In this document: piece after piece, positions 4,702-62,436 of the stretch | Numbering within the stretch: the first letter of the stretch is position 1 | Layout: every line of letters starts with the position of its first letter | Position numbers and translations under genes: made by a program | Source of the DNA: Rhizaria sp. SCN 62-66 | Taxonomy: Eukaryota | NCBI GenBank assembly: GCA_001724265.1 | Contig: MEDY01000020.1 | Coordinates: 62,001-126,000 of the forward strand | Direction of reading: 5' to 3' | Length of the DNA stretch: 64,000 bases | The notes under the pieces: generated by a model | Seen by the model: the letters and a program-made list of their open reading frames with translations, nothing else | Databases searched by the model: none | Told to the model about the DNA's origin: nothing

Positions 4702-5848
4702 ATGCTTCGACGCACTCTCCGCGTTCTCGCCATCTTAATTGGCGCTGCTCTGGCGACTGTGTGTCTCGTCGTCGCCTCACTGGGCGGCGCCTCGGCCGCC
4801 ACGATTATCGCTCCCCCTGGTCTTTCCTTCGGTCGCGGTACGCCCTAATATCGGCCACACGTATGTCAATCTTCAAATTTCCAACATCTTCGCGCTACCT
4901 GTTTCTCGTCATTTTGATTGTTTCTCAGTCGTCTCTCATCCTTCCACTGTTTTGTTGTGGTATTTGCAACGGCATTCCCTATTTCTAGTCGCTGGCTCGC
5001 GTGAGCTGCCAGACTTGCGCGAGCGCGAGGCGGCCATCGTGTCCCGCGACGGCGACGCCGACGAGCCCGCCGCGTCCGACGCGCCGCCGCGGCTGTACCG
5101 GCGTCCGCCGCAGTGGCGCCCGCCGCGCGGCCCTGCGCGGTCGCCGTTCCCGCCGCCGACGTGGCGCGTGTACCCAGCGGACCCGATGCTGCTTCCCGGC
5201 GGCGTCATCCTGACCGCGTCGGGTGCCGTGCGCACTGACGTCGACGTCGTTCGCAGGCACAGCACGCCTGTGAGCGGCGACGGTGGCCGCACTCGCACGC
5301 GCACGCGCACTCATCGTCGTCGTCGTTCGCGCTCGCGTCCCAGCGACGCTTACGATGCTACCCGCGACCACAGGCTTGACGACGATCTCTCGCAGCCCCG
5401 CCGCCGGAACTACGGCGACGACGGCCACAGCGACGACGGGTTCCGCTACGGTCGAGAGGCCCGCGCCGTTGCCGTTCTCTCGGACGACCCATCGCGGTCC
5501 CCGGAGTCGAGGATCTGGCCCCCGCGCCCGCGGCCGCCGCCGGGCCCGCGCCCGGTGCCGCCGCCGACGCTGCTGCCGCCGCCGACGCTGCTGCCGCCGC
5601 CGACGCTGCTGCCCGGTCCGGACACAGACGGCGAACACCCCCCGTGCTATAGCGGCAACAACAGCGGCAACGGCAACTGTGGCGGCGGCGGTGATGCGGG
5701 CTGGCCGGAGCCGCGGTATAGGTTGATCCGACACACGCGCGTGGGGCGGCCCGCGCACGTGTCGGCCACGGCGGCTGCGGACGCCGCGGAAGCCGCCGCG
5801 CGCGGGGCGCAAGACAACGCCGCTTGGTAGGCTCGCACCAACGGCTGA
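4702..5848 (+). CDS. Predicted secreted Pro/Arg-rich protein of unknown function; 2 exons (4702-4837, 4989-5848), reading through TAG 5828-5830 to TGA
   Basis: Exon 1 encodes a signal-peptide-like MLRRTLRVLAILIGAALATVCLVVASLGGASA; phase-1 GTACGC...TTTCTAG intron (4838-4988) joins in frame to the 4739..5830 ORF; PPPTLL repeat x3. If TAG were a stop the gene would end at 5830. Confidence 0.6.
5558..5611 (+). repeat. Coding tandem repeat, 3 x 18 bp (PPPTLL)
   Basis: CCGCCGCCGACGCTGCTG repeated three times. Confidence 0.85.
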
Positions 5849-17978: not shown

Positions 17979-20900
17979 TTAAGCTGTGTTCTCCTTGTTG
18001 TCGGCGGCAATCTCAACGGACACTGCGGAGAAGAAGGGCGAGGACGCGACCACGGGGTCGACGATCTTGCCCGCGGCAGCCGTGGCGCGCTGCTGCGCCG
18101 CGGCGGCCGCGCGCTGCTGCGTCGCCGCGGCGGCCTGCTTGCGCGCCTCGGCCGCGGTCGGCGTCGCCGCGCCGAACGCGCCCAGCCGCGCGGAGCCCGC
18201 GCCTGCGCCCGCGCCGAGCAGCGCGGTGGCCGACGCGGAGACCGAAAGGCGCGCGCGCGCCCCGGCGGCCGTGGGGGTGCCGACGGTGCGCGCGCCGGCG
18301 CCTCCGATGGTGGGGCGCGTGACGGCGCCCGTCGCGGTGCGCGCGAGCGCCGCGTTGGCAGACGCGCCGGCGCCCGCAGCGGAGAGTGGGGCTACCGCGG
18401 GTGCTGCCGTTGTGGCGGCCGCGTTAGCGACGGCGGCGACGCGGGACGTGCGCGAGAGTGCGCGCGCGGACGAGGCTGCGGCCGGCGGCCCCATGAGCGA
18501 CGCGCTCGACGCCGTGGCACTGGGCGTCGCCGAGGGCGCGCGCGCGCGGGCCGCCGTCGACACGGGCGTGCGGCCGCGGACAGCCGCGCCGACCGTTGAG
18601 TGCGCGCCCGCGCGGGGCGTCGCCGCTGAGCCGGGCCGGGCGCCGGCACCGGCGGCGCCGCCGGCGGAGCGCGCATTGAGCTGCTCCTCGAGGCGCGTGC
18701 GGTCGCCGAGCGCGAAGCGCAGCTGGGCCTCGAGCGCCTCCTTCTCGCGCTCGTACTCGATGAACTTCTCCTCAAAGCGCAGCTGGTCCGAGTGCGCCTT
18801 GGCCTTGTACATCTGCATCTTGCTCACGGCGGCGTCGTGCAGCTTCTCCTGGGCGCCCGCCGCGGCCTCGACGGCGGCCTTTTCCTCGCGCACGCGCTCT
18901 GTCTCGGCGCGCGCGGCCGCCAGCACGCCCGCAGCCTCCTCGCGCGCCAGCCGCAGCGAGCGGCCCGCCTCGTCACGGAGCTGCGCGACCGTGTTCTGAC
19001 CGGCGTCGAGCCGCGCCTGCATGTCGGCCTCAGTGGCCGCCCACGCGCGCTGCGCCTGCTCAAACTGCGTCTGCAGCATCGCCAGCGCGGCTTTGGCCGT
19101 CATGCTGTCCGTCTCGGCCGTCTTGAGCCGCTCCAGAGTGCGGGTGGAGGTCTCGCGCTCTTGCTCGTCGCTCGCCGCGCGCGCGCGCGCCTCGGCCGCC
19201 TGCATCGCGACCAGCTCGCCGTGCGCGCCGCGCAGTGCGGCGAGCTCTGCGCCCAGCCGCGCAGCCTCGCTCTGCGCCGCGTCGCGTGCGGTCGTCACGG
19301 CGAGCATGTCCCCGTCGAAGGTCGCCGTGCGCGCCTCAGCGGCGGTGCGCGCGGCCACGGCCTCGCGGTGGCCCTCGGTCGCTGCCTCCAGCGCCGTCGT
19401 CAGGTCCGCGATCTCGCTCGCCGCCAGCGCGCAGTTGCCGCACGCGCCCGCGCCGCCGCTGCACCCGAACTCAGGGTCGCAGTCCGCGCCGTCGCCGTCG
19501 CCGTCGTCCTCGGGCGCGGTGCGGCGGAGGTCGGCCAGGGCTTTGGTGAGGCGCTCGACCTCGGCCGAGAGCTCCTCGCTGCGCGCCATCGCGCTCAAGA
19601 GCATGTTGCGCTCCTTCTCGTCGCGCGTCTCGTTGATCTAGAGAGAAATAAACAGAGCGAGGCAGAGTTGTGAAGTGTGAGTGTGCAAGCTAGGTCGGTT
19701 TACAAGTTGAATTCGACAATAATTAACAATCTTTTGAAACATTAGAACGCGTTTAGATGCGTACCTTAGCAAAGTTCTTGACTTCGAGAGCGTTTGAGGC
19801 AAAGCGAAGCGTGGAGATGGTCATGTTGACGGCCGAGATACTGGGCGAGATGCACGCAATAAGGCATGTGAGACAGTTGCCGCCGAACGAGTCTTGCAGC
19901 AAGTACGTGAGCGCCGAGTCGCGGTACGGGATGACGGCGCGTTTGCCCGAGCGCGCCGAGTCCTTGAGGCGCGAGATGACAAGCGAGAGCGTCGACAGCG
20001 ACGAGTTGATCGAGCACGCCTCGGAGAGCTGCATGCCCTTGGTCTGCGCCTCCTTCTGGCGTTCCGAGCCCGCTAGATCGACCAGCGTGAAAGTGGCCAG
20101 CCGCGCGACGGTGGACCCGTCAAGCTCTTTCTCCGTCGTGTGGAGCTTGAGGCGGAACACGCTGTGCGAGCGCGATGATTCAGCATTCGCGGCCGTCGCA
20201 GACACGCGGCGGTTGTCCGCACCCTTCTTGATGTAGTAGAGGCACTCGGCGGCGTCACCGACAAAGACGGAACGGTAGTTGGCCTGTCCGCTTGCCAGCG
20301 CGGCCGTCGACATCACGTTGAGGCCATTGCTGGGACTGCCGCCGTTGACCGGAGAGGTCGCGGAAGCGCCCCCGTTGGCCGCGTTGGCGGCGGCGGCGGC
20401 GGCGGCGGCCCCGGCGGTAGTGGTGGCGGCGGACCCGCGGCGCAGGTTGCGCGGCATGTCGGGCACACCCGCAAGCAGGTCCTCAGTCTTGTCGAGGTAC
20501 AGCTGGAGGTACGAGATAGAGACCGTGGACACGGCCGACGGGTTCGACTCGGCGCGCTTTGCAAGCGCCTCGAAGACGTGCTCGACCGCGCGCGGCATCA
20601 GGCCGCGCGTGGAGGTCGCGCATGCCACGTCGCCAGGGCCCTGAATCGCGTAGGTCTTGCCGGAGCCCGTCTGGCCGTAGGCCAGAATGGTCCCGTTGAA
20701 GCCCGCGAGGAAGCGGTCGGCGATCGGGCGGCCGACCTGCGAAGAGAGAAAAGTCACGCAGAAACAAACACGAGCACAGAAAAGTGAGCTATTACGTGAG
20801 AAACTAGAATCCAATTGTACTTGCAAAGATATGCTGCAATTTGATATGATTTAAGATAATTATGATGCGATGTGCGGATAGACCCCGAAAGAGCCGTTGG

Positions 20901-21378
20901 GCCGCGCGAGGCGGGTCTGCCGGTGCTTTGAAGATAGGCGATGCATGAATGCGGTGACGTACGTGCTCGAAAACGTCCTCTTGGGGCACCTCAGGCGCGA
21001 GGATGCGGTCGAACTGGTACGCGCTGTTAAGGTGGACGCTCTGTTTGGGTTGGCGCGCCGTCACGTTGACCGTCGACGGCGGCTGCAGTGTGATGCACGT
21101 GCTTTATGAGGGAAGGGAAATAAAGCGCAAACAAAAATGGAACGGAATGTGAGTATGCAGAGCCGATAAAAACGCGTAGTTTCAATCTTACCAGAAATGA
21201 AGCAGCCCATTTCGGATTGTTCTAACGGCATGGTGGCGGTCTAGAAGGGGCGTGGGACGTACTCCTCATCGGGACGGGGGGGCGCGACCTTGACAACAAC
21301 GTTGATGCGAAAGACTTCGTCTGTGGCAGCAGAGACCGACCTCACGCCGGCACCGCCAGACGCGGAACGGTCAGCCAT
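17979..21378 (-). CDS. Kinesin, N-terminal motor plus coiled-coil stalk, kinesin-12/KIF15-like; 4 exons (21378-21263, 21101-20963, 20736-19765, 19637-17979), 961 aa
   Basis: INVVVKV, YQFDRIL..QEDVFE, GFNGTILAYGQTGSGKT (P-loop), SSRSH, LVDLAGSERQK, IPYRDSALTYLLQDSFGGN; three GTACG...AG introns keep the frame and join the motor ORF to the 17979..19604 coiled-coil ORF; ends TAA. Subfamily inferred from the DLAGSERQK..GMQLSEA..IN.SLS context. Confidence 0.88.
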
Positions 21379-24425: not shown

Positions 24426-27400
24426 ATGAGGCGCTTTGTGTCCCCGGCCGCGACCACCTCGGTTGCGCGCCGCGCCACAGCCGTTGCCGCCGCCGTCACA
24501 TCTTCCACCGCGGCGCCAGTCGCCCGCGGTGTTGCGCCCATCGTGCTGCCTGTGCCTGTGCTCGCTGACAACGCCTCCTCGTTGCTCAACACTAACGCAG
24601 TCTCTCAGCACATGCAGCAGCTGGCTGCCGCCACGACTGCGCGTAAAAGCGCCACATTTAAGTCATTTGCGCCGATTTCTAGCGTTATGCACGCGCACGC
24701 TGACGATGTGAGCGACTTCAACGGCCTAGGCGCTGTAGTATCTGCCGTTCCTTCATCTGCCACTGCAAGTTTTGCTGTTGATGCTTCAGTCGCTATCTCG
24801 GTGAACTCTGCTGATTTCGCTCCCAGCCGTGGGCCCTCAATGCTGCGCGCTACTTCCCCCGTGCTTGCACCCTCACAAGCTGCATTGTCGCCGCCGACAC
24901 AGCAGCAGACGCATTAGCAGCCGCCATCGCAGTCGCCACAGTTATCTTCTGACCCCGAAGTGGCTGCGCTGCTGCTGCGCGGCGACCACCGCGGCGCGCT
25001 CCCGCTGCTGCAGCGCCGCCTGGCCGCCCACGCGCGCCTTGTTGCCGCCATCGAGGCCGCCCGTGCCGCCGCGTCAGACTCTGTTCTCAGATCACATCTT
25101 CTTAACAACCCTGAGTCAGAGACGTCGGACGCAGCTGCGACTGCAGCCGCGGCGGCTGCGGGCGCGGCGGCGCTGGTGGCGGGTTGCCGCGCCGCGTTTC
25201 CGTGCTGGACTCCGCCCACCGCGGGCCCGCCGCACCTGTTCGCGGGGCACAGCTGCGCCGACAACGCCGACGGCAGCGAGGACACCAACTCATCCGCCGA
25301 CGACGTCAGTGTCGGCTCGAGCTTCAGCGGCGACTACAGCGACACGGTGCGCGGGCGCGCGACGCTGGACGAGGCCGCGCTGCTGGCGTCGCTGCCCGCC
25401 GTGTACTCGGACCTGTCCGCACTCTTCCTCTGCCTCCTTAACACGCCGCCGCCGCGCCCCTCGCCGTCGTCATCTGCTGATAATGCAACACCTGCTTCTG
25501 CCTCTGCCTTGGCCTCGGTGCGGTTTGGCGGCGCGGACACGTCGCTGGCAAGCATGGACGCGTTTTTCGCGCTGCTGGCCGCGGACCCGCTGTCCGCGCT
25601 GCTTACGGCGCCCGCACACTGCGCGCTCGCCCACGGTCACAGCCACGGCTACGGCTACGGCCACGGCCTCGGCCACGGCAACATTCACGGTCTCGCGCAC
25701 AATGTGGGCGGGACGGGCAGCGCTGTGGCCGCCGCGGCCGGCGGCGGCGGGCGCGGCGGGGACTGGCGGCGGCGGCGGGTGCAGGCGCTGCAGGACGCCG
25801 CCGCTGCCAAGGCGGAGCTTCTATCTCGGCTCGCGCTCGCACTGCCGCACCTCGCCGACGATAGCGCGAACGCCAGCAGCACGAGCGGTCGCAGCGGCAG
25901 TGGCGCCAGGGCGGCGAGCGCGCGCGCGGCCGTGGCGGGCGCGGCGGCGATGCGTCCGCTCTTGGCCTCGCACTCGCTCGCGCACGGCCAGAATCAGAGG
26001 CAGAACCTTGGCTCGGGCGGCTCGCTGCACGGCGCATCGTCGCTGTTGAGTGAGACTATGCCCGCAGTCGCCGCGTCGCTGAACGTGCTCACTGTTGCCG
26101 GCGCCGACCTGGCGGCGCTCTCCGCCGCGGCCGCCACGATCGCCGCCCCCAGTGTCGCCGCCTCAAGCGTCGCAGCCAGCGCAGCAACGCCGGTGACGGC
26201 GCGCGAGGGCGGTGTTGCGGCCGCTGCGCTCGAGGCCCCCCGCCTCTTCATTATTGGCGCGCACGCGACCGCGCTTGCGCACGCCGCCGCCAGCGTCGCG
26301 GCTGAGCACGGAGGCTCCGACGCGCCCTCCCCGGCCGCTGCTGCGTCTGCGTCATCAGCCGCGTCCGCAACGGGGGCATCTGCCGCGGCCGAGGCGGAGC
26401 GGGACTGGGTCGACGCGCTGTCGCCCGCCCTCGTCGCCGCCGCCACCGAGGCCGTCATGGTCACGGGCGCCAGCTCCTCCGTTGCCCTCGCCGACGCGGC
26501 GGACGCGGACGACAGCAACGGCAGCTCCAGTCTCAACAGTGCAGTCAGCGGCGGCGTGGCCGGGGCGGACGCTGACTTGCTGTTGGCGCGCGCACGCTTT
26601 TCCCACCAGGACAGCGCTGCGGCCACGCGCTCCGCGCACGATAGCACTGACCCCGGCCAGAGTCTGAGCCAGAGTCGCACTCGCGGCGGCGGCCTCGGTC
26701 TCAGCACCGCGACCGTGCGCGGCGTGTGCGTCGCCGGCGACGCCGCGGCTGCGCGCTGTCTGGACACAGTCGCCCTGCCCGCACTTGCGCTGTCTGCCGC
26801 GCTGTCCTTCTCGCTCGCCGCGGCCCCGGGCGCCGCCGCCGTGCTGTCGGGGGCGCGCGCGGACGAGGCGCGCGCCGCGCTCGTGCGGACGCTGCTGCGC
26901 GCGGCGGCGGCGCGGCTGTGGGCCGCTAGCGTTGGGGTGTTTCACGCCGCCGTCGCCGTGTGCCGCGAGAACACGCTCGCCGTCGCGCCCGCGCTGCCGC
27001 GCCCGCTGCTATTACGCAAACACGCGTTCCCCGCGCCAGCGGTGCACTCGGCCGCGACGGGACCGATTGCCGCAGTCGCCGCGCTATCCGACTCGGGCGC
27101 CGCGGGCCCGCTCGCCGCGACCGCGTCCGCCGCCGCCACAGCGATCCACGAAGTGACGTGCGCGCGCGACTGGGGCGCGGGCTCGCACGTGCCCGCGCTG
27201 ACCGCCACGGTCGCCGCGGCGGCCGCGGCCGTGGAGGCGCTGTCTTCGTTGGCGCTGGCACCCGCGCTGGCCGTCAAGGACCTCGCGCGCACGGCGCCGC
27301 ACGTGCTTGCGCGCGCGCTCGACAACACGGCGCGGCGCGGGAACGGGACGGGCGAGTGCGACGGCGGCAGCGACTGCGAGTCGGCGGCGTTCCCCGCCGT

Positions 27401-30092
27401 GCCAGTGGAGGCGTACGACGTGTTGACGGCGGCCGCGCTGGCTGAGTTCCTCACCGCGCACGTCGGCCGCGGCATCACTGCGGTCAACAACGCGTTCATC
27501 GTGTGGGAGACCGCGCTTGCGGTCACGCCCGCAGTCACGGTCGCGTATCCGACGCAGTTCCACTCGCAAGCACAGCCGCAGCAGCAGCACCAGACGTCGC
27601 AGTCGCACGTGCAGCCGCTCACGGGCGCTGGCCCCGCGACTGGCGCCTCTCCTGCGACCGCCTCCACTGTGCACGTCCCCACCCCGGCGTCCGCGTCCGC
27701 GTCGGCCGCGGTCTCAGCGGCGGCGTCGGCCGTGGCGAAGGTGCTGTCTGTGGCGCCCGTCGCGCCGACTGTGAGCCGCACTGTCCGCGCTGCAGGCTCG
27801 GGCTACAGCTCCGCCTCCGAGTCCGAGGGACCAACGACGCCCGCTGCCGCCGCTGCCGCCGCCGCCGCCGGCGCGCCCGCTGAGGCCGCTGTGGCCGGCG
27901 CGGTTGCGGCCGCGGGTCTGAAGCCCGTCGCAACAGTACACCTGGACCCGCTCGCGCGCGTGGGCGCTGGCGGCGGCGTTGGCGCCGCGGGCGCGTCGTC
28001 CGCGGCGGGCGGCGCGCGCGCGGACCCCGTGCTGTCGGAGTTCCCCGCCACGCCGTCGATTTGTCTGGACGAGCAGAGCGAGGACGTTGTCGCGGAGGAC
28101 TTGGCGCGCGAGGGCGTCACCGCCGCGGTCGCGCGCACGGGCGCGGACACGTTCACGCCGATCCCGCGCTCGCCGCCGCCGCAGCCGATCGCGCCGCAGC
28201 AGCAGCAGCAGCCGCAGAAGCAGGCCGCGCCACAGACGAAGACTCAGTCGCCGCCGCAGCCGCACGCACAGTCGCAGGTGCATCTACCGCAGCATTTGCA
28301 CATGGCGCCTAGCGGACGCACCCCCTTGCAGACGCATGCGCAATCGAACTCGCATTCTAACCCGCACCCGCACCCGCACCCGCACCTGCAGGCCGCCGCG
28401 GCGTCCCCGCGCGCGCGGGGCAAGGGCGCGGTGTCGGTGTCGCTGTCGCCGAAGGCGTGCGTGCTGTCGTGGTCGGAGCCGGCGACGCTGGCGCACGCAC
28501 CGCACCTGGAGACGCTTGTACGCCTGCACGCGGCGACGGCTGCGGCGACCGCGGCTGCCACCACGCTCGGCCCGCACGCCTGGCTTGAGCGCCTTGAGCG
28601 CCAGCAGCGCCAGCAGCAGCAACAACTGACCGAGCAGCAGCAGCAGCAGCATCTGCTCGGAGTCGGCAAAGAGCGTCGCCACGCCGTGCTGCGCCGCCAC
28701 CGCGCCGCGGCGGGCCCGTGCCTGGGCCCCGCCGCCGGCGGCGGCTCGGCTGCACTTTGCTACCAGGTCGAGGTGCTGGCCGAGCGCGCAGTCAAGAAGT
28801 CGCACCGGCACGCCATCACGGCCTCCGCGGCCGAGACCGAGCTCCGCGCGTGCGCGCCGTGGCCGCTGCTTGCCGCGCTTACCGCGCTGCCGTCCACGCT
28901 CGCGCTCGGCTTGCCGTCACAGGCCGCGAGCGCCGCCGGCGCCATCGTCGGCGTCAGCGACCGCGAGAGCGCGCGCGCGGCGACGGCGATGGCGATGGTG
29001 CGCGCCCCGATCCGCGCGGCGTGGCACGCGCTGGGGTTGCTGGCGCCGCCCGCACACAGCGCGCTCGCGCCCGCCCCGGTCGACTCGGCGACGCACCAGC
29101 AGCAGCACCACGACCAGGCGCTGGCGCAGGCGCAGTCGGTCTTCCCGGCGGGCTCGCTGCAGTCGTACCTGGCGAGCTACTTCGCCACGGCTTCCCCGCC
29201 CTCGCTTATCGCGGCCTCGCAGCACTGCATCGAGACGCTGCAGGCCTCGGCGCCCGCGCTGTGCGCGCTGCTGGCGCCGCACCCGCGCTTCGCGCTTGCC
29301 GCCGCGCTCGCGACTGTGCGTGCGGCCACGGCCGCCGCCGCCGCCGCGCGTGCCGCGGGGCTGCCTCTCACGGGCGCGCGCCTCGACGCCGCCGCGGGCG
29401 AGGCGGGCGCGGCCGTCGCCGTTGACGCCGGGCTCGCCGCCGCCATCGCTGCCGAGGCCGAGGCCGCCGCGCGCGCCGCGTGGGCGCAGCCCTTCGTTGT
29501 GCTGCCCGCCGGCGCGGCTGCTGCTGCTGTCGCTGCGGGCGAGAGTGCCAAGGCCGCCGCTGCCGCCGCCGCTGCTGCAGCTGCCGCAGCGCGTGAAGCC
29601 GGGCGGCCCGGCGCGGGCAAACTCGGCCCCCGCGGCGGCGCTGACGCAAGCGCTGGTGCTGGTGACAACAGCGGCGCGACCGGCGGGCCCGTGGTTGTGG
29701 TGACGACGACCAACGCGCCGGGCATCGACGGAACCGTCGTGATCAAGCCGCGCACCACCGGCGGCAGCGACGGCGGCGGGAACGGGCTGACCGCGGCCGC
29801 GATCCTCGACGGCGACGCGAGCGCGCCGCTGCCGCCGCTGCCCGCGCCCGCGCCCGGCACGGCCCCGCTGGCGGCGCTGCACTTCCAGCTCACGCTCGCC
29901 GTGGCCTCGGCCTTCAACGACGCCGGCATGACTCTGGTGCAGCTGGTGCAGCTCGCGGCGCCTCGCCTTAACCTCTCACTGCTGCGCGCGATGCAGCTTG
30001 CGGGCAATGAGACCGCGGCCGTGCAAGCGGCGAGCTCCAGTGCTGGGTCACGTCTTAACATTGCTGGCGCTAGCAGCAGCTCCAGCAGTAGC

Positions 30093-30129
<37 letters not shown>

Positions 30130-33100
30130 GCAGCAGCAGCAGTGACAGTAACAGCAGCAGCACCGCCGCTAGCAGAAGCTTTAGTGCCAGCACTCCTGCG
30201 AGTTACGGCTCCAGCTCGAGCCAGAGCGCGGCATCCAAGGCGACGCCTTTGATTGCGACCACTTCGGTGCACGCGAGCGCGGAGGCGGTTGAGCGCGCCG
30301 AGGCCGAGGCCGCGACGGCCGAGCAGGCACGACAGCAGGCGAAGCAGCGCGCCGCGGCGACGCGGCTGGCCGGCGAGGACGCCTTCCTGACGTCGGGTGC
30401 CGCGGCCGCCGCCGTCGCCGCGGTCACTGGCGGCGACCACGCACCGGACATGGGCGAGCGCGCGAGCGCGGGCAGTCGCTACGCCAGCCCCGAGCGTAGC
30501 GCCGCCGTCAGTCCCAGCGCGAGCGCGCGGCTCGAGAGCGTGCTGACCGCTGACGCCGTTGCCGCTCCGCGCGCGGCAGGCGCTGCTGCTGCGGCTGCTG
30601 CTGCTGGCGCGGGTCGCAGCACGACGGCGCCCCCCGCGGCGCCGGCGACCGGCGCTTTGCAGGGCGGCGAGTCCGGCAACGCGGCCGGCGCTGCCGGACT
30701 GGCGGGCGCCGACGCAGTGGGGCTGTTCGACCTCACGCACTCCGAATCGGGCCGGGCTCGCCGCGAGCGCGCGCGGCGCGGCTGGGTGCGGCTGCTGCCG
30801 CCGCCCGCCGCGCTGGCGCTCACGGCCGAGACCGCGCGCGCGGTGCGGCCCGGTGGGTTGTGGTGTTTCGGGCGCTACTGGCTGCCTACGACGCTGTTGC
30901 TGTCGCCGCCAGTGCCTGCCGCCGCGGCCGCGGGCCCGCCGATGGTCAGCCGGCTGCCGTTCCTGACAGTGGCGTCGCCGCTCGCCGGCGCGAGACTGCG
31001 CTGCACGCGCGCCGCGGCGCTGGGCACGGTGCCCGCCGACGCGCTCATCAGCGGCGCCGCCGGCGCGCTCACCACGGAGCACTACGCGCTGGTGGCCGCG
31101 GCCGACGGGACCGCGCTGAGCAGCGCGCCTAGCAGCGACGCTGCGGCCGCGGGCGGCGTGCGCGCGTGGGTGAGCGAGGCGTCACCGCTGCCGCACGTGA
31201 CGCCCGCGACGGCGCCCGCGCTGACCGACTACCTCACCCGGCTGGACATGATGGCCAACAAGGCGCGGGCGCACTTATCGCGCTCGCTCTGGCTCAAGCT
31301 CACCGCGCTGGGGCTCGCGCACGACCTTCCGCTGCCGGGCCGCGCAGTCTCAGCAACAGCGTCCGCGGCGGGTGCAGCGGGCAACGCGCGCGCGGGCCAA
31401 GGGCCCGCGCGCGAGGGCGGCGGCGTGGGCTCTGCTATGGCTGCGGCCGTGGAGGCGGGTGTTGCGCAGGCCGCTGCGGCGACGCGCAACACCACAAACA
31501 CAACGCTGCTTGCGGGCAAGCCCCATGCGAGCGACGCCGACGCTAGCAGCGCAGACGATTGCCACAGCAATAGCAGCGACAGTAACAACAACGTGAGACG
31601 CAGCAACTACGGCAGCGGGGTTCTGAGCCCGGAGCTTCCCGGCGTGAGCGATGCAGCCGTTGCGGCCGCGGCGGCCGACGCCGTCGCTGCGCAGGGTCGC
31701 GCCGTCAAGGCCTGGCTGGCCTCCGTCGTCGCCGCGCCCACAGTCGCGGCCTCCGCTCCCGTGCCCGCCGCGCAGCCGCGCGAGGAGCCCAAGGGCCGGC
31801 GCGCGGCGCTCAGCGCGGCGGACGCGGCGCAGCATCTGCGGTACCGCCCGCCGAGCTCCGCCACCGCGAACTCCACTGCCACATCGGCTGCGGGGCTGCT
31901 CGCGAGCGCGGCCGCGGCGGTGCCGACGGTGGTTGCGAAGCACGTGGCGGGCCCGGTGCTGGTGTCGGTGTCCAACGCGATCCGCAACACGACGGTGCTG
32001 CTGCTCAACGCGGGCGGCGGCGCGGCGCACGTGAACGGGCACGGGCACCACCACGGCCACAGCCACCACCACGCGCACTACGTCGCGCAGTCGTCGGTGC
32101 TGTCGGCGCACATCGGCGAGACGGTCGCCGCGGTGGCGCCCGCGCTGCTGCCGGTGTACGCATACTGGGCGCGCGAGGTTGCGTTTCACACGCACTGCGT
32201 TGCGAGCTCGGGCGCGTCGCTGCTGCGCGGGCTGCCCTCGGGGCTCGGCTGGCCGCGCGCCGCGTTCCCGCCGCTGCAGCACCTGGGCGACCGGCGGCCC
32301 GGGGTCGCGCTGGCTGACTCATGGGAGGCCTTCGCGCCTTCGCAGGCCAGCGCCGTGCTCAAGAACGCGCACACCAACCTCGCACAGGCCGCGTCCGCGG
32401 CCGGGGACTTGCCCGCCGCGGAACTGCACTCCGCGCTTGCGTGCGCGCTTACCGCGTGGCTGCCCCAGGTCGGCGAAGAGGCCGCGGCGCAGAGGCTGCA
32501 GCAGTAGCGGAAGCCTGCGCCGACGAAGGCGCTGGCCACGGTGGACGTGGAGGCGGCCGCGGATGAGGTCGCGGTCAACAAGGGCGTGCCCCCGGCCCTG
32601 GGCCGCCTCGGCCAGCTGCCCAGCAACAGCCTTGTCTCCAGCTCTTTCCCGGGCGCGGGCTCTGGCTCTGGCTCGAAGAGCGGCGCGATGCGCGCGGACG
32701 CGGTGTTGACGCAGCTGCTCGCGCATTGGGCGCGCGTCCCCACGTACCCGACGTCGCAGCCTGAGGCAAACGCGCTCATCATGAAGGCGTCGCTGCTGGG
32801 CCAGCTGGGCGCGCTCGCGCAGCAACAGCACCAGCTTGAGAGCCGCATCGCCGCGATCCTTCGCGCGCGCGACGGCCGCACGCTGCCGCCGCCCGCGTGC
32901 CTGGGCGCGCAGGCCGCGTTCTACGCTAAGTTTGTACACCCGGGGACCGTGAACAAGACCAAGGGCGGCCGCACCGGCGGCGAGCGCGGGCGTGCGGCGG
33001 CAGACGCGGCTGCGAGCTCTGGCGCCGGTCTCGACGTCGCGGGGCTCGCTGAGGCACTGTGTCGGCGTGGCACTTCGTCGGCGAACGCGGCGGCGCTGCA

Positions 33101-34100
33101 GGCGCGCGCGCGCGCGTCGGCTGAGCGCGCGGTAGCGGCACTGACTGGCGCGCTCTCCGCGCTGCAGGCGGCGTCGGCGCTATGGCCGCCGGGCCGTCTA
33201 CGCGCGCAGCAGGTGCTGCATCTCGAGGTGGACCCGTGCGCGCCGCGGCTGTCGGCGGCCGTGCTGCTCGCTGCTGACTCGGCGCGCAGCCGCGAGCAGG
33301 CGCTGACGCTGTCGGGCAACCTGGCACAGGCTCTGGTCGACGCGCGCTCCCCGCAGGCCGTGCCCTTTATCGACTCGCTCATCGACGCCACGCTGCTGCA
33401 CCGCAACGCCGCGCGCCTCTCGTTCCTGTACGCCGACGCGGCCCGCCAGCGCGCGCGCCTCGCAGCGCGGGGCGGCGGCGGCGATGGCGACGCGGGCGTC
33501 GTGGAGCTGATGATGACGCGGCCCGTGACCGTAGAGCTGGGCCGCACGCCCGCGCTGGCGGAGCTCTTCTGGCGCAAGGCCCTCGCCGCGCAGCTTTGTG
33601 GCACGCCCGTGACTAACGGACCCGACGCGACTCCCGCCACCACGACCGCCGCGGCAGCGACAGCGAGCGCAGTCCCTACCTCGCCTGCGACCGCCAGTGC
33701 CAGTACTACTGCTGCGCCTGTTCCGGAGCCGAAGCCGGACCTGGACACGGCGGAGCGCGCGCTCTTCTCGGCGCTGTGGCATGCCAGCGCCGCGCCCGCC
33801 GCGCGGCCCGGCCGAGGCACGGTCGGCGCCAAGGACGCCGACGCCGACGCCGACGCAGCGGAGGAGGAGGAGGACGCGGACGCGGCGTTCGAGGCGCGCG
33901 GCCCGCTGGCGTTTGCGCGGCTGGCGCCGCACCCGTCGGTGCCGACGCGCGTGTTCAACGCCATCGTGCTGCAGTACGCCGAACTGCTGAGCAGGCGCGG
34001 GGACCTGGCGTCGGCCGCGATGGTCTCCACGCATCTCGTCATGGAGCCGGGGGGTGGCGCGGACCCTGCGTACATCCGCCAGGTTTTGCGCTCGGGCTGA
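24426..34100 (+). CDS. Giant Ala-rich hypothetical protein (3,224 aa) with two in-frame TAG codons (24915, 32505)
   Basis: ORFs 24426..24917, 24960..32507 and 32541..34100 are in one frame, separated only by single TAG codons, with unchanged coding-like composition across the junctions; ends TGA. No family recognised; weak TPR-like helices near the C-terminus. Confidence 0.7.
30072..30161 (+). repeat. Coding (AGC)n poly-Ser tract
   Basis: Imperfect AGC run encoding SSSS...RSSSSDSNSSS. Confidence 0.85.
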
Positions 34101-41543: not shown

Positions 41544-43535
41544 ATGATTCTCAGTCGCACCAAGTTCCGCACGCAGGTGCGCGGCGCCGCGAGTGTGTGC
41601 CTCATTCCCGACCTGCTTGAGCGCACGTCGCATATCATCCGCACTGGCTACTCGTTCCCCCGCTGGTGGAAAGTGTACAAGATGACCCCGCCCAAGACTG
41701 TCATGAACGGCGGCCCGCTTAAGGAGATCAAGATGCCATTCGACCACCTCGTCAAGAAGGCTGTCACGCGCATGCCCATGCTCCGCAAGGAGCACCTTGA
41801 CTTCAACGACAAGGACTTTTCCCCTATCGCGGTCCGCTTCGCGCAGACTCAGTACGCCCTCATGAAGGAGAAGAACCTCTCCGAGGAGCAGGCCTTCGTC
41901 GAGTGCGAGGAGAAGATCTTCAAGGAGGAGCTCTGGGTACGTCTTACCCACTCACAACTTCTTCCGCTCACCCATAACTCTTCGTTTTGAACTCTTCACC
42001 CAACGCGTTGCCGCATCCGACAAGCTCGCTCGCTCTATTTGACACCGTGCCTTCACACTTCTTTCCCCTTGTTTCCGATCATTGATTTATTTCTTCTTGT
42101 GCAGAACTTTGCCAAGGCCATCCGCCGCTCTCCGGGTAGCTACTTTAAGCTGACGGACAAGGAAGCGCAGTACTTCAAGCTGCACGACATGGTGAACGCG
42201 CAGGTCTACGCCGACGGCGCGAGCAAGGCCGCCGGCCGCCCCGGCACCACCGACGCCGCCGGCGTCGACTACCGCACTGCGCTCAACGCGCTCTACAACT
42301 CGCCCGTGGCCTCGCCCGTGCGCGCGCTCGCGCTTCCGAACCCGCGCCCATACCTGGAGTCGCTGCTCGAGGCGTACCGCGCTGCCGCCGCCGCGCCTGA
42401 GGCCCCTGCGAGCGCCGAGGTGATGGCGCATTACCGCTCCGCCGCCGCTGTCGCCGCCGCTGCGGACCGACTCGCTGCCGCGCTGGCCGCCGGCGACATC
42501 AGCGCCTCTACTCTGGCCCAGGTCGAGGGCGAGAAGGACGCCTACGGGCGCGTGCTCGCCACGGCTGCCGACGGCACCATGTACCGCCGCATCCCCTACA
42601 CGTCCCAGCTCTCGGGCCCGCCGCGTGCGCGCCACGAGGTCGTCACCGAGGTCGCCGAGGGCGTGGACCGCGATGCGCTGGCCGCGCGCTACCCGCCGCT
42701 CAAGTACACAGAGCGTCAGCGTTACGTGGCCGGTCGCACCAACGTGCCGCTGAACCTGCTCATCGACGTCGTCAAGGCGGCTGAGGCCGTGGCGGCGCCC
42801 GAGATGCCGAGCTTTTCCGGAGAGGCCTCCGGGTGGCACCCAGAGCTGCTGCGCGAGCGCGTCAGCCCCGACTCGCTGGGCCCGCGCAAGGCGCGCAACA
42901 TGGCGGCGGGCGAGCTCGACGAGCAGGCGCTGGCCGACGACGTCATCTTCGCTAAGTACGCCAAGCTCCCGCGTCCCGCGGGCCAGGAGGACGAGGGCGA
43001 GCTGCTGTACCGCAGCTACATGCTCGAGCAGCAGCTGCTGCAGGCCGTCAACATGGTCGGCGACCTGGAGGCGCTGGCGGCGCAGCACACCAAGCAGCTG
43101 CGCCTCGCGGGCGTCTGGGCCGAAGAGTCCCAGGACTCGGAGCTGGCGTCGCAGCTCGAGCTGGCTACGAGCGAGGCGTACGAGACGATCGCCGAGTGCG
43201 AGGAGCTGCTCGACCAGTTCGAGCACCCCGACAGTGACCCCGAGGAGGAGGTCCCGGCCATGTCCGCGCTCGACGCGCGCACCGCCGCGGCGGCCGACGC
43301 GGCCGCGCCCTCGGTCACGCGCGCGATCTCGATGCGCGAGCACGTCTGGCACAGCGAAATCCTGCGCATGCAGCAGAAGCTGGAGCGCCGCCGCGTCGCC
43401 ACGGAGAAGCTCGCGGCCGCGATGAAGCGCGAGGAGGAGATGGCGGCGCAGATCGCAGAGGCCCAGCGCAAGGCCGCCGCCGAGGCCGCCGCACTCCAGG
43501 CCCAGATCCAGGCCGCCGCCCCTAAGACCGCGTAA
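41544..43535 (+). CDS. Mitochondrial small-subunit ribosomal protein mS23 (Rsm25)-like with long C-terminal extension (607 aa); exons 41544-41936 and 42105-43535
   Basis: N-terminal PRWWKVYKMTPP...LKEIKMPFDHLVKK...P...FAQTQYALMKEKNLSEEQAF fits the mS23 pattern; phase-0 GTACGT...GCAG intron; ends TAA. Confidence 0.65.
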
Positions 43536-49474: not shown

Positions 49475-51214
49475 ATGTCCAAGTACCTGACGTGCCAGGA
49501 CGACGTGAGCGAGGTGGGCGCGCTGGTGTGCCTGCACTGCCACTCGTGGGAAGTGCCCACTTGCTCTGACCACGGGCCTATGTCCTGGCCCACCAGCGAG
49601 CCCTCGGACCCGTCCTGCATGTGCACGCCGCACCCGCCGGCGTCCGCGCGCCGCTGGGGTCCGCAACCAGCGCCGGACGCGTGGCGCGCGCTCCCGTCTG
49701 CGCCCGCGGTACGCGTGGGCGTGCGCTGCCACTCGTGCGCGCTCGAAGTCTTCGAGTCTTAGCCCTGGTGCTGGCGCTGCGTCGACTGCGACGCGCCCTC
49801 GCCCGGAGCCGTCCGCTTCCTCCGCTTCCGCGCCGCCGCGGGGGTTGCCTTCCGCGCCGCCGCGGCGCCCGGGGACGGCGCGGGGTCCTTTCCCATCTGC
49901 CCGCTGCAGTCGGACACGTTAGGCGACGCAGGCGGCGGCGGCCGGCCGAGTGCGCGGCCGCAGCCGGTGGCATTCGCGGGCTACCTCGCGCGCTGCCAGC
50001 TCTGCGCCGCCGCCGCGCCGGTGCTCCGCGCCGAGAGCAGCGCGCACTACGCCGCCGGCGACGCCGCCGCCTTGGCAGTCGCAACCGCCGCCGCCAGGGC
50101 AGAAGCAGCCGCCGCAAAGCGCGAGGGCAATGGGACCGCGGCTGATGGGACTACGACGGAGGCGAATGCGGCTGTGAGTGAGGCGCAGCTGCAGCAACAG
50201 CCTGCTCTTGAGCCGGAGCCGGGGCTGGCGAGTTCCGCAGTGGAGCTGTCCCGCGGGGTCGAGGGCGCGCTGCGCGTGTGCCGGCCCTGCGACGCGTCCG
50301 TGGCCGTGCGCCACTTCCGCGAAAACAACAGTCACCTCTTCACAAAGCGCGGCAACAATAACAACAACACCGCGAACGGCAACGCAGTGACTGGGCAGAA
50401 TGCCGATTCAGCAACAGCCGCGGGAGCAGCGGCCGAGGACGAGGAGGATCTGGCGGCGTACGACGACGCGGCCGTGGTGGCGGCGCTGCGCAGCGCGTGG
50501 GCCCGCAAGCTCGAGCACCACGGCGCCCAGTGCGCGCTGCTGGGCGGCGACGCGGCCGTGGTCGTGGAGCCCATCTCGACCGTGGCTGCGGCGGCCGAGA
50601 ACCTGTGCCGCTACACCACGGGTCCTGCGCGGCGGCCGGCGCCGGCTGTGCGGCTGCAGCAGCGCTGCGAGCACCCTGATGGCCACGTTGGCGACGCCGA
50701 CGGCAGCAACAACGACAGCGACGCCGCGGACCGCGACTGCGGGGGCGTCGCCGTGCGCAGCGCGCTGGGTCAGACGGTCGCCGTCGCGGGCGCGGGCCCC
50801 GCCGACAGCGAGCGCTGGGGCTCCTGCGACGCGCTGCCGTGGCTCGCGCCGCTGGCCGCGGATGAGCAGGAGCGCGAGGCCCTGCGTGCCGCCGCCGCGT
50901 AGATTGCGCGGGCGCGCGGTGCTCAGGTCCACGCGGCGGCGGCGACGACTGGGGCGACGCTGGGGGCGACGCTTGGGCGCGCGGTGGACTCGGTGGCGCT
51001 GCGCACCGAGCTCGAGAGCGCTCTTGGCAGCGGCTGCAGCGACAGCATTGGCGGCAGAGCTCTCGAGACTGTGGGCGGATCTGCTGTGCACACACAGCCG
51101 ACTCCCGCGCAGAGTCTGGACCAGAGACCGGGGCAGGGGCGCGCGGCACGGGAGCGCGCCGTGGCTGCCGAGTGGGCGCGGCGCGAGACTAGGATGCCCG
51201 GACTCGGTCGTTGA
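49475..51214 (+). CDS. Cys-rich hypothetical protein (579 aa) with two in-frame TAG codons (49760, 50900)
   Basis: ORFs 49475..49762, 49967..50902 and 50984..51214 share one frame with only TAG between them; CxxC-type pairs on both sides of the first TAG (CLHC, CHSC | CWRCVDC, CQLC, CRPC); ends TGA. Confidence 0.6.
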
Positions 51215-52105
51215 GCGCGAGAGCGGGTTGTGCGCGCCTTTTTTGCTCTGGTGCGTGTTACATGTACCGTGTGGCTTGCGCCTCTCGAAAGCTCTTGTTG
51301 TGGGGGCTTTGACTTTGGGCAATGATTGATTTTTATTGATTAGATTTTAATGATTACTGAATAATGAACTTAAAGAACTAAAATTACGCTGCCGTGAAAT
51401 CGCGAGATATTGACAAACTTGTTGAGTGTGCATTACAAACGAAATGGAGGAACGTCATCCTCAGAGTAACACGAACTGCAAACCTCAATCGAACTGCGTG
51501 TTTGGAGTTCGATGATTATAATAATGAGATTTGCCAGAATGAGACTTTCTTATCTAACATACGAGTGAATTTTGTACACAAAAGCATTTGTTTATCGACG
51601 TTGCGAGCGGGTATTGACTTCTATAATGTCACGTCATACGTATTACAAGCTTGATTATTGTATAAATACATCGCTTTTTGATATTTCAGAGTTAAATAAA
51701 CATGTTTTTCTTTACACCCAACCATTTTCCAGACACATATCCAAAGTGTTAAGTGATTAGTGGCCAAATAATGCGGTATTGACACAAAACATCGTTTACT
51801 TGCCAAGGGCCACAAATGAAATCTGGGGGGTACCAAGGGTGAGTGACAACGCCTCATTTTGAACGGAGATATGCTCGAGCGCTTAATCGTAAATCAGTGA
51901 TTAGCGCCCCTGTTATACATATGCCGCTTACTTATAATGATCATACTTCTGTGGTTCTTGATTACATTTTGATTAAACCTTACGTGTACGTCTGTTTATC
52001 TCCCCCTCTCACCAGGCTGCCCGCTTGGTCTCCTTTTCATAGCCCGACTTTCTCCTTCTCACCCGCCCCGTTTCCGCGCCCATCACCCGAGCCGCTGGGT
52101 TAACG

Positions 52106-58459: not shown

Positions 58460-58774
58460 GCCAACATAAGTTATGCGTGCTGAATGACATGATCTTGGTC
58501 GTTGTACGTGTTGTTGGTGGTCTATGCTAATGTGATAAACATGTTCAATTGTTATTGAGATTACAAATAATAACTCTAGAATAAATTATTAAGGCTTTTT
58601 TCCAAATTCTATGTTATCTATTTCAGTCACAGCATCTGTGCTGAATTATTAAACTAAAATCTACTCAAAATGTCATCATGCGAACACAAAAATATTATCA
58701 AAAATACAACAGCATTCATCAAGACAGTTTCCTTGTCACTGCACACCCTTCTATCAAAATCGATACAGTTAACG

Positions 58775-61700
58775 TTACGCCCACTCCCAGTCGCGAATAT
58801 TGCCCTCATCAGGGAGTGCACCCTCGATCTCACCCTGGGTTTGACCCTCCTCCTGGTGCTGCGGCTGCTGCTGAGGCTGGCCCTGCTGCGCATCGTTGCG
58901 CATCCACTTCGTCACTGGCGCCGCGGCAGCAGCCTTTGCCACAATGGCGGCCTTGGCCTCGGCCTTAAGAGCTGCCCGGGCCTCGGCCGTGGCGCGGGCC
59001 TCATCCGCAGTGCTGGCCTGCACCTGCTGCGCCTGCGCCCGAAGCTGCGCCTGCGCCCGGGCCTGCGCCGCGGCATCTGTCTGCGCCTGGGCCTGCGCAC
59101 GCGCCGTCGCGAAGGCCGCGGCCTGCGCCAGCACCTGCGCCTGCACCTTGGCGGCGGCGTCGGCCTTGGCCTTGGCCTCGGCGTTCTCGGCCGTGAGCGC
59201 GTCGATCTGCGCCTGCTGCTGCACCAGCTGCTGCTGCGCCTGCTGGAGCTGATGCTGCTGCAGCGCAGCGTGAAACACTTGCTGCGACGCCGCGTCTACG
59301 ACCGGCGGCATGCCGTAGCCGTAACCGGTGCCGGCAAAGCCTCCCGGCGCGACGCCGTAGGCCATGTGCTGCCCGGCGTAGGGCGCGTAGCCATACGGCA
59401 CGCCAGCGCCCGCCGCGGCCATGCCCGCCGCTGGCATGTGCGGGTGCCCGGCGGCGCCGTAGCCCGGGGCGGCGCCGTACGCGGCGGGCGCGGGCGCGGC
59501 GCCGTAGCCGGGCATGGGGAAGCCGTAGGCACCAGCGCCCGCGTGGGGTGCCGGGTACCCGTGAGGGTACTGTCCGTGCGCGTGCCCGTGTGTGTGCGCG
59601 TACGCGGCCTCGTGGCCCACGGCGGCAGCAGCGGCAGCGGGCTCACCATCGGCGTCTTTAACAGCAGCGGCGGCGGCACGAGTCGCGCGCAGCGCCTGTG
59701 CCTGTGCCTGTGCCTGCGCAGCCGCGGCGCCCTTAGCACCTGCCGCCACGGCGGGAGCGCCTCCAGCTGGGACGGGAGCGACCGAGTCGTTGCTGACCCA
59801 GCCCATAACGGGGCGGTCGCGGGCGGGTGGCGCCGCCTTGGCCAGCGGCAGCGGCGCCACAGGGTGCAGCGCCTTGGGCGGCTGGTACGGGCCCTTGAAG
59901 GTGTTAGCATTGCGAGCAGGACCAACGTTGCCGCGGTAATTGTTTCCTCCGGTGTTGTAGACCTTAGCAGGCGGCGCGCGCTGTTGATGTTGATGGTGCT
60001 GTTGCCGCTGCTGTTGCCGCTGCTAATGCTGTTGATGCTGATGCTGCACGCGGCCGCCGTCGGGGCTGTGGTCACCACGGATACGGTCGTCCGCGCGGGC
60101 GAACTTATTGCGGGCCCCTGTGAAGTTGCTGTTGTTGTTGTTGTTATCGCCATTGTTCTGGAGCTCCGCCGCCTCCTCGGCGGCCTTCTCGCGCGCCCGG
60201 CGCAGCGCGCGCTCACCCGCGGCCATGCACCGCGCCGCAAGCGCTGCCGCCGACACAGAGTGCTGGCGTCGCGCCGCAAGCGCCTCCGCGCTCTCAGCCT
60301 CGGCCGCCGGCTCCTGCTCCTGCTCCTGCTGCTGCTGCAGTTCATGGTCGTTTCCGTCCTGCATCGCAAGCACGGGCGCGGGCGCGGGCGCGGGGTCCCA
60401 GGCCGCGGCGTAGGTGAGCGAGCCGAGCATTGCGGCGAGCGCAACGGCAGCCTGCTCCTCGTCGTTGGCATTGACCGTGACGACCGCGGCGAAGCCCTCG
60501 CTGGCGACGGGCGCCTCGAACTCGTCCTGCTGGCGGTGCACGACGCCGCCGACGCGCGCGCGCGCCTCTGCGGGCGACTCGTCCGCCTGCGCGCCCAGCC
60601 TCAGGTGGCCCACGCGCGCCAGGACGCGGTCGACCGAGTCCTTGGCCGGCAGCAGCAGGTGCACGCACAGCCGCAGCGGCAGCGGGACAGGCGCCACGCC
60701 GAACGCCGCGGGCGCCAGCGCCGGCGACGGCAGCTGCGTCGGCATGTTCGCGGCCGCGGCGGCGGCGTCGGCAACGGCCGCGGCCGCGGCGATGGCGGCA
60801 ACAGCGGCGCCGTCGTTGTCGCGCGCAGCATTGTTATTAAGATTGTTGTGATCGTTCACGACAACACCGTCCTCCTCAGCTTCTTCTTCGTCGACGAAAG
60901 TGAATGCAACGTGACCGGGCTTAAACGCCACAGCAGGGGCAGCAGCCGGAGCGGCGCGTGCGGCAGGAGCGGCGGCCGCCTGTTGCTCGCGCCGCCCCTG
61001 CCTGTCCTGCTCTAGCTGCTGTCGCAGATTCTGGAGCCGCTCCGCCGCGTCCACCGCCTCCACGGCCACGACGGCGTCAATGGCGGCGGCGGCGGCGTTG
61101 AGCTCCGCCTCGGCCTTGGTAAGCGCATTGACGGCGCGCGCGTCGGGCGCCTGCGGCGCGGCGGCCACGTTGAGCCAGTGCGCGCGCTGCTGCTTGGTGA
61201 GGTTCGTGCGGTCCACGACGAGGCGCGGCACGCCCAGCGCGTCAAGCGCGGCGTCCCACGCTCTCACGCCCGCGGCCACGCGGTCGCGCTCCGCGTCGCG
61301 CTGGGCCTTGACCTGCTCGCGAGGCTTGTTGTTGGCGTTGTTGTTACCGGCCAACGCTTGCGTCTCGAGCTGGTTCAGAGGCAGCGGCAACAGCGCGGGC
61401 AGCAGCGCCGCCAGCGCGGGCCGCGAGCCCGACACAAGCGCGTCGGACAGCCCCTGGCGCGCGGCGGCGCGGGCCGCAGCGGAGCTAGACAGCAGCGTCG
61501 CCGTCGCCGCGTCTATCGCGGCAGACGCGGCGGTCACGACAGGAGGCTGCTGCAGCTGTTGCTGTTGCTGCTGCACATGGAGAGGGAGAAAGGCCTCAGC
61601 AGGGCCCGCGGCAGCCTCGTCAGCGGCGGCCCGCGCGGCGGCCGCGGCGACAGTCGTGGCGTAGGCTGCACTCAGCGCGGCGGCGGAAGCGACGTTGTCA

Positions 61701-62017
61701 GCGAGATTGACAGCGGGAGTCAGCGCGGTCGTCACTGCGAACTCGCACGCGCGGCGGTCGCCCATCGCGTCCTGGTTGACCACGCACCACGGTGACGCAG
61801 TGTCAACGTCCTCGGTGATGGCGGCCGCGGCGGCAGCGGCGGGCAGAGCGGAATTGGCTCGCAGGGCGCCCGTGAAGGAGGACTTGCCGGCGCCAGAGAG
61901 GCCGACGAGCACAATGAGGCGCGGCAACGGCAGCAGAGATGGCCACTCGTTACTCGTAAACGACGCCGGCAGCGCGCCCGCGCGCGCCAGCGAAGGGTGG
62001 ATGCGGAACGAGAACAT
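58775..62017 (-). CDS. P-loop kinase (AAA_33/polynucleotide-kinase-like) with a Gln-rich and Tyr/Gly/Pro-rich C-terminal region (1,080 aa); one in-frame TAG at 60025-60023
   Basis: LIVLVGLSGAGKSSF, VVNQDAMG.RRACE, LVVDRTNLTKQQRAHW, DRVLARVGH, FEAPVASEGF; ORFs 60023..62017 and 58775..59860 are one frame joined by TAG plus 54 open codons; ends TAA. Confidence 0.75.
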
Positions 62018-62436
62018 TCCGAGCTTGGCCGAGACGCGAGGCAGGACCGGAACGGGTGGGTTCGCTCTATGGAAGATCGCTGCGTTGTTTGGAGAAAACT
62101 GGACAGGGGATTCAAGCGCAAGATGTGATGAGTCTGCGTATTAAATAAAGTAAAATGTGTTAAACAACACAGTAAACTCTAACAAATTCGTGTTATTCCG
62201 ACCTGACGACGTATATAGAGCATTATCAACATGCTTATTGTGTGGACGAACGATCTCGGTCGGACGGCGCTGCCACAGAGAGACCACCACAAACGAAGCG
62301 TGGCTCATAAGCATTGCTGTTGCGCACCACAATCATCGTCAAAGCAAGATTGTTTGTGTGCTTATTGGTTTAAACGTGGTTTTAACAACTTGTCTTGTTT
62401 TTTGTGCTTTTAATTGCTTAGGAACGCGCGTATCGC

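Follow-up and report, generated by a model that had tools for sequence, protein, structure and literature searches.

Among eukaryotes, nuclear code changes that affect UAG only are known just from Iotanema spirale, from one rhizarian and from a small number of phyllopharyngean ciliates. Iotanema spirale (Metamonada, Fornicata) is reported to read UAG as glutamine (Gln), with UAA and UGA as stops; a tRNA-Gln(CUA) and an altered eRF1, with T32G in the GTS motif, are predicted to bring this about (PMC5304391). The same assignments, listed as NCBI translation table 15, are described for the ciliates Hartmannula sinica and Trochilia petrani; 18.5–31.8% of their Gln codons are UAG, about 80% of genes contain one, and UAA ends more than 85% (PMC11687900). 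UAG has been assigned to leucine (Leu) in the rhizarian exLh (PMC5304391) and in phyllopharyngean metagenome-assembled genomes from TARA (PMC11687900). Codes in which both UAA and UAG (UAR) mean Gln, table 6, are reported from many ciliates, hexamitin diplomonads and some green algae (PMC5304391). The subject here is a TAG at 60023–60025, on the minus strand, in a stretch of 64,000 nucleotides (nt) assigned to Rhizaria sp. SCN 62-66 (contig MEDY01000020.1, positions 62,001 to 126,000); the whole of this 64-kilobase (kb) stretch is called the window. UAG is probably a sense codon in this DNA, most likely for Gln, with UAA and UGA as terminators, and two open reading frames (ORFs) that flank the TAG would be joined by its translation.

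Read as a sense codon, UAG here is a further instance of a rare, already known kind of nuclear code change. As in the Iotanema case, UAG alone would be reassigned, to Gln, with UAA still a stop. That case was built, according to its report, on a transcriptome and on inference from conserved positions, and UAA is the main stop there (PMC5304391), whereas in the window TGA predominates among the stops (10 of 15 confident genes), the DNA is GC-rich and TAG is very rare. The table-15 ciliates described in PMC11687900 are similar in that UAG is read as Gln and never terminates, a role left to UAA and UGA. In the reported UAG = Leu codes (PMC5304391, PMC11687900) UAG alone is a sense codon and UAA a stop, as here; the amino acid differs, and the sequence context here favours Gln. 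With the UAR = Gln codes (PMC5304391) the window would share the conversion of a stop to Gln through a suppressor tRNA-Gln; the difference is that TAA ends five of the 15 genes here and is never found in frame. No GC-rich or wastewater eukaryote with a UAG-only Gln code was found in the literature searched, a limited library.

The TAG site and the joined reading frame

The features at the locus are as follows.

60026..62017, minus strand: upstream part, 664 codons, with an ATG start; putative P-loop kinase, then a low-complexity tail
60023..60025, minus strand: in-frame TAG, codon 665 of a 1080-codon frame, with CAT before it and CAG after it, in a Gln/His/Arg run
59997..60024, minus strand: tandem repeat (Tandem Repeats Finder: period 12, 2.3 copies, 100% matches)
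58775..60022, minus strand: downstream part, 415 codons plus TAA, in the same frame as the kinase ORF
58460..58774, no strand: spacer rich in AT (GC 0.33), on which the UCH gene and the kinase gene converge

An earlier note on this DNA had pointed to a TAG inside a Gln/His run as the junction between a kinase ORF and a downstream ORF; the letters that it quoted match the minus strand exactly from 60049 to 59996, and so does the position of the TAG. Under the standard code, the two ORFs are 60023..62017 (664 amino acids, ATG) and 58775..59860 (361 amino acids, GTG), and they lie in one common frame. The 54 open codons that the note had counted between the TAG and the GTG at 59860 were recovered on reading this frame (60022..59861). 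Translated through the TAG, this frame comprises 1080 codons, with the TAG as its one internal stop, and is terminated by the TAA at 58775–58777. Directly beyond this TAA begins DNA of GC 0.33, and the AT-rich spacer marks the true 3' end of the coding region. The 415-codon part consists, in order, of a Gln/His/Arg run, a part rich in Gly, Tyr, Ala and Pro, a part rich in Ala and Gln that resembles a coiled coil and, last, an acidic end.

The TAG is not an assembly error, since a DNA contig of another study (run X3) is identical across 59829–60292, TAG included, with 0 differing letters, and none of the runs compared has a different letter at 60023–60025. In the codon register of the 12-nt repeat, the TAG takes the position that CAG has in the two copies that follow, one C-to-T transition apart.

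The DNA that follows the TAG does not resemble an intergenic spacer of the window. Its first 162 nt have a GC of 0.61, its first 60 codons 0.63, and the 216 nt from the TAG to the first downstream ATG (59806) 0.67; the GC of the 14 intergenic spacers is 0.33–0.60, with 13 of the 14 within 0.33–0.52. The claim that the downstream ORF has no AT-rich spacer of its own thus agrees with the composition of the site. Coding signal was measured with a codon log-likelihood model trained on 11 other genes of the window and scored per codon. The upstream ORF scores +0.47, the best of its six frames; over 58778–60022 the same frame scores +0.40 and the other five frames are negative. Downstream of the TAG, the frame that continues through it is the best in nine of nine bins.

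Contigs assembled from polyA RNA map to both sides of the TAG, at 60049–60292 and 61089–61345 upstream and at 59391–59677 downstream, and over 60049–60292 the RNA contig is collinear with the DNA. The flanking spacers, 58606–58839 and 62116–62583, are covered by DNA runs, and no polyA-RNA contig is listed there. The gap that the listed RNA contigs leave across the TAG decides neither way. Read depth in the low-complexity bins includes contigs from other organisms and was left out of account.

Other in-frame TAGs and the ends of genes

The window holds five in-frame TAGs, four firm and one ambiguous, in three of the 15 genes, and the codon signal continues in frame on both sides of them. Besides the TAG of the kinase gene they are:

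24915..24917, plus strand: in-frame TAG, codon 164 of gene 24426..34100, between CAT and CAG
32505..32507, plus strand: in-frame TAG, codon 2694 of gene 24426..34100, with CAG CAG before it
50900..50902, plus strand: in-frame TAG, codon 476 (of 579) of gene 49475..51214; surroundings not Gln-rich
49760..49762, plus strand: ambiguous in-frame TAG, codon 96 of gene 49475..51214

Gene 24426..34100 (plus strand) has 3224 codons and a TGA end, with coding signal on both sides of each TAG. Gene 49475..51214 (plus strand) also ends in TGA, and its best coding frame includes the TAGs at 49760 and 50900. A standard-code ORF at 50400..51329 (plus strand, 309 amino acids) was rejected as a gene; its GC at second codon positions is 0.80 and its codon score negative, and it merely shadows the real frame, 49475..51214, in another register.

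What follows the internal TAGs differs from what follows the ends of genes. The 60 in-frame codons after each of the five TAGs contain 0 stops and have a GC of 0.63–0.79, whereas after the 15 terminal TGA or TAA codons GC falls to 0.32–0.54 and 14 of 15 frames meet a further in-frame stop within 60 codons. With no stops and high GC on the one hand and stop-rich, low-GC flanks on the other, the openness downstream of the internal TAGs exceeds chance. The earlier note had called the TAG of the kinase gene the clearest single site for UAG as Gln. This ranking is debatable: the site itself stands, and the TAG at 32505–32507 has the stronger coding signal just downstream, scoring +0.49 over the 60 codons that precede the next ATG, against +0.11 in the first 60 codons past 60023–60025.

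Of the 15 confident genes, 10 terminate at TGA, five at TAA and none at TAG, and lower-GC DNA follows each terminator. If TAG were 20–30% of stops, the probability of 0 TAG ends among 15 would be 0.035 to 0.005. TAG is not rare in the spacers, where both strands together hold 211 TAG, 401 TAA and 402 TGA trinucleotides. No in-frame TAA or TGA with coding-like sequence beyond it was found among the genes of the window; the lone in-frame TGA between two coding-like stretches (41988–41990) lies within a clear intron. A GC-rich open frame of 369 codons at 4739–5848 (plus strand) is of doubtful status as a gene: it contains proline-rich repeats, matches no Pfam family and has a codon score of about 0.

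The amino acid and the rival explanations

If UAG is a sense codon, the neighbourhood of the TAGs suggests which amino acid it specifies. A Gln codon directly adjoins the TAG at three of the five sites. The rate of Gln neighbours in the window is 29% for Gln codons and 4–10% for the codons of each of the other amino acids, so that three or more such TAGs among five would have a probability of 0.15 under Gln and of 0.003–0.009 otherwise. Gln is favoured, and is the most likely meaning of UAG, because of these neighbours and because the 12-nt repeat pairs TAG with CAG. The proposal of the earlier note that UAG is Gln in this DNA can accordingly be taken in two parts: the sense reading is supported by the join of the frames, and Gln itself indirectly, by context only, through the three neighbours and the alignment of the repeat.

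Several observations weigh against this interpretation. The evidence on the code comes from one window of 64 kb with 15 confident genes, a small sample. None of its five TAGs lies in a conserved domain, as judged by Pfam and homologue searches, and no alignment places Gln at a TAG; nor did the collections searched yield a relative of the kinase gene that could be checked for CAR at the position of the TAG. The window has no tRNA genes and no Rfam matches, so no suppressor tRNA was seen in it, and no eRF1 gene lies within its 64 kb. No RNA spans 60023–60025 among the longest polyA-RNA contigs listed, which end at 60049 and resume at 59677. The codon score of only +0.11 in the first 60 codons past this TAG belongs here too, as does the consensus donor GTACGC that lies 54 nt upstream of the TAG at 49760, in phase, where the local coding signal is weak; a short intron that keeps the frame, 49709–49762, may end at this TAG. 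Within the doubtful open frame at 4739–5848, ORF 5186..5830 is TAG-terminated under the standard code, with a TGA five codons on, before AT-rich DNA. Finally, the five TAGs stand beside 555 CAG and 75 CAA codons, about 0.7% of Gln codons, in three of 15 genes, as against the 18.5–31.8% reported for the table-15 ciliates (PMC11687900).

Taken by itself, the kinase gene is compatible with UAG as a genuine stop, an explanation that is unlikely and nevertheless has more in its favour than the other rivals. The kinase would then end at residue 664, its tail having been cut off by a CAG-to-TAG change so recent that the frame is still open, or being made by low-level (leaky) or programmed readthrough. 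The rarity of TAG in the genes of the window agrees with this, and so does the completion of the kinase domain well ahead of the TAG: a product ending there would keep the whole domain, and the homologues are 165–212 amino acids long. UAG-CAR-YYA is the context of leaky stops in plant viruses, and the CAG after this UAG is the first part of it; the site reads TAG CAG CGG, however, with CAR present and YYA lacking, and downstream of the TAG no stable structure is predicted (z −0.66). Readthrough by a near-cognate tRNA-Gln is reported in organisms with the standard code (PMC13192750), and the locus would resemble such systems in having UAG followed by CAG, Gln inserted and a C-terminal extension made. 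Readthrough systems differ in yielding two products and in using UAG as a normal terminator elsewhere, whereas in the window TAG ends none of the 15 genes and TAGs occur early in very long genes. Stops at codon 164 of 3224 and at codon 476 of 579 would destroy the proteins concerned, yet the coding signal goes on beyond them. Recent truncation is also at odds with the kinds of lesion seen: the internal stops are all TAG, without a TAA, a TGA or a frameshift, and the same TAG is present in the DNA of two studies.

It is improbable, and a good deal less likely than Gln, that a translated UAG stands for some other amino acid, such as Leu as in exLh and in the TARA phyllopharyngean ciliates. UAG has come to mean Leu in eukaryotes, as reported in PMC5304391 and PMC11687900; two of the five TAGs (49760 and 50900) stand outside Gln contexts, and no alignment at a conserved position speaks for either amino acid. 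On the other side, three TAGs that touch Gln codons would be expected with a probability of 0.005 at the Leu rate and 0.15 at the Gln rate, and a perfect 12-nt repeat sets TAG against CAG, a single transition away.

It is very improbable that there are two genes, with the kinase stopping at the TAG and a separate gene with its own transcript starting downstream at ATG 59806 or GTG 59860. An ORF of 343 amino acids does begin at ATG 59806, and none of the listed RNA contigs bridges the gap. The spacer between two such genes would be the 216 nt of GC 0.67 described above, open in the same frame and with the best codon score of the six frames (+0.16); the six same-strand spacers of the window are 424–1812 nt long, five of them with a GC of 0.42–0.50. 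The two parts also lie in one frame.

A tiny in-frame intron, 60049..60023 (27 nt, GT...TAG), would take the TAG out of the mRNA, and is hardly to be expected. The stretch does begin with GT, the only one in phase, finishes with AG and has a length that is a multiple of three, and the TAG at 49760 may close a 54-nt intron with a consensus donor. Its own donor, GTGCAG, fits the local consensus GTACGY at three of six places, there is no pyrimidine tract, and the four clear introns of the window measure 127–226 nt; a codon beginning with GT would be expected by chance within the 20 codons upstream. The RNA contig that reaches 60049 keeps the genomic base there, a weak point against splicing. A normal intron spanning the TAG is excluded by the lack of GTA[AC]G in the 1995 nt upstream and by the collinear RNA contig at 60049–60292. 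Two further ideas, pyrrolysine and the editing of UAG to CAG in the RNA, were set aside, as neither is known from the nuclear genes of eukaryotes.

With the rivals weighed, the join of the two ORFs by a translated UAG, as the earlier note proposed, is well supported: the same codon-usage frame runs on both sides, there is no AT-rich spacer and no splice-donor consensus, three or four further TAGs are found in frame, and none of the 15 genes ends in TAG.

The protein, its source and the proposed code change

If UAG is read as sense, the two ORFs (58775..59860 and 60023..62017) are one gene, 58775..62017 on the minus strand, which would encode a protein of 1080 residues: a P-loop kinase of AAA_33 type at the N terminus, interrupted by long inserts rich in Ala, and behind it a long tail of low complexity. 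The motifs occur in the upstream protein in the order Walker A, QD..G.R..C, DR.N....QR..W, RV..R..H and EGF, and are spread over about 520 residues by Ala-rich inserts of about 160–170 amino acids; about 560 low-complexity residues follow the kinase domain in the 1080-residue reading. In an alignment with four homologues, all AAA_33 motifs are present in the protein of the window, those shared being Walker A, W..vnQD.(l/m)GsR..C, v(i/v)DR.N....QR..W, RV..R..H and EGF. Three of the four homologues reach the cut-off of Pfam AAA_33 (PF13671), the fourth (P0122) scoring 23.2 bits against a cut-off of 27. A Pfam scan of the kinase protein itself gave no family at E up to 0.001 or 0.1, and no gathering threshold was reached; the long inserts probably break the match to the profile. 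Matches with phmmer are weak (E 0.039 in the PDB; E 2.7e-6 to 9.4e-4 among representative proteins). The label 'kinase' given to the ORF earlier thus holds as a weak, consistent match to P-loop kinases of AAA_33 type, and finds no backing in a Pfam score. Stand-alone kinases of this type (PDB 9d8a, 'Rhizopus azygosporus Kinase', and 9drz) have the motifs in the same order; they are 165–212 amino acids long, whereas the protein of the window has inserts that split the motifs and a long low-complexity tail.

Searches for a relative of the gene found none. When 8000 candidates were scored at E up to 0.001, the 1080-residue reading had as its only homologue the window's own 664-residue ORF. An exhaustive search of representative proteins, again at E up to 0.001, returned six: this ORF, four small kinases that match the domain only, and one low-complexity match, to residues 899–1032. 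No related locus was confirmed in JGI metagenomes (591 pattern matches), IMG/VR (71) or GTDB genomes (600).

The source of this DNA would be an uncultivated eukaryote, GC-rich and poor in introns, that turns up in wastewater, bioreactors and activated sludge. Metagenomes of all three kinds, from several studies and years, contain the DNA, and a polyA metatranscriptome contains part of it. An atlas look-up returned 'Eukaryota' and nothing narrower. Its coding parts have a GC of about 0.8–0.9 at third codon positions, and its housekeeping genes include a dihydrouridine synthase (Dus), a class II aminoacyl-tRNA synthetase, a kinesin, a GPN-loop GTPase (GPN1), a UCH protease, an EF-hand protein and a TRAPP subunit. 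The DNA comes in long pieces (up to 97 kb) and is GC-rich with AT-rich spacers, unlike the macronuclear DNA of ciliates. A giant-virus origin of the window was rejected in view of the eukaryotic housekeeping genes and of a kinesin gene with introns of spliceosomal type. The closest proteins to the GPN1 of the window are 66–73% identical and the best named ones 56–59%; the latter come from several supergroups, with amoebozoans, fungi, animals and plants among them (Balamuthia, Umbelopsis, fishes and plants). A scan of JGI metagenomes with GPN1 yielded 77 loci and no close relative, identity being at most 69% in high-scoring segment pairs of at least 100 residues. Five of these loci, from other organisms (L024, L041, L046, L049 and L073; GC 0.29–0.45), have an in-frame TAG opposite a Gln of the query, and two of them, L041 and L046, have an in-frame TAA as well; they probably belong to organisms with codes of ciliate type.

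The kinesin gene contains three of the four clear introns and gene 41545..43535 the fourth; they are 127–226 nt long, with a GC of 0.39–0.47, GTACGT or GTACGC donors and pyrimidine-rich 3' ends. The genes that contain them are:

21378..21263, 21101..20963, 20736..19765 and 19637..17979, minus strand: exons of the kinesin gene; donors GTACGT, GTACGT and GTACGC
41545..43535, plus strand: gene with an upstream exon; ATG 41545; 168-nt intron 41937..42104, donor GTACGT, with an in-frame TGA inside

ORFs 19753..20598 (kinesin motor) and 17979..19604 (coiled coil) belong to one four-exon gene on the minus strand, in which the apparent TAA stop at 19753 and the TAG at 21241–21243 are both intronic. 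For gene 41545..43535, the ORF list shows the second exon only (42189..43535). The candidate intron at 49709–49762 is 54 nt long and GC-rich; if it is real, the introns of the window fall into two classes that differ strongly in length and in base content. Conserved enzymes (6275–10843, 1955–4462 and 60026–62017) contain very long inserts of low complexity that are rich in Ala, and the core-domain match of the class II aminoacyl-tRNA synthetase stretches 179 profile positions over residues 280–948.

In the cytoplasm of this organism, UAG would be translated, most likely as Gln, and UGA and UAA would end genes. By analogy with the described cases, this would call for a tRNA-Gln with anticodon CUA, derived from tRNA-Gln(CUG), that reads UAG and not UAA, and for an eRF1 that does not recognise UAG efficiently. 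The TAG of the kinase gene could have arisen by a C-to-T change in a CAG inside the 12-nt repeat, which encodes Gln-Gln-Arg-Gln; the change would be silent under the proposed code. Whether an undescribed GC-rich, intron-poor lineage of wastewater and activated sludge has captured UAG independently, as a very rare Gln codon beside TGA and TAA stops, is an evenly balanced question. If it has, this would be a further origin of a code of the table-15 type, the first in a GC-rich genome, seen at an early, low-usage stage.

There are also practical consequences: gene callers set to the standard or bacterial codes split such genes, and a public protein collection holds the 664-residue piece only. Direct follow-up is feasible, since reactors and sludge have yielded the DNA repeatedly and there is a polyA metatranscriptome. 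Giant-virus genomes, some from activated sludge, are reported to be best called with reassignments of a single stop (PMC13524828), and the present case bears on the question of which hosts read these codes. Codes in which UAG alone has changed bear on how eRF1 separates the recognition of UAG from that of UAA, and on the capture of stop codons; in a GC-rich organism in which TAG no longer ends genes and yet makes up less than 1% of Gln codons, such capture would be seen at an early stage.

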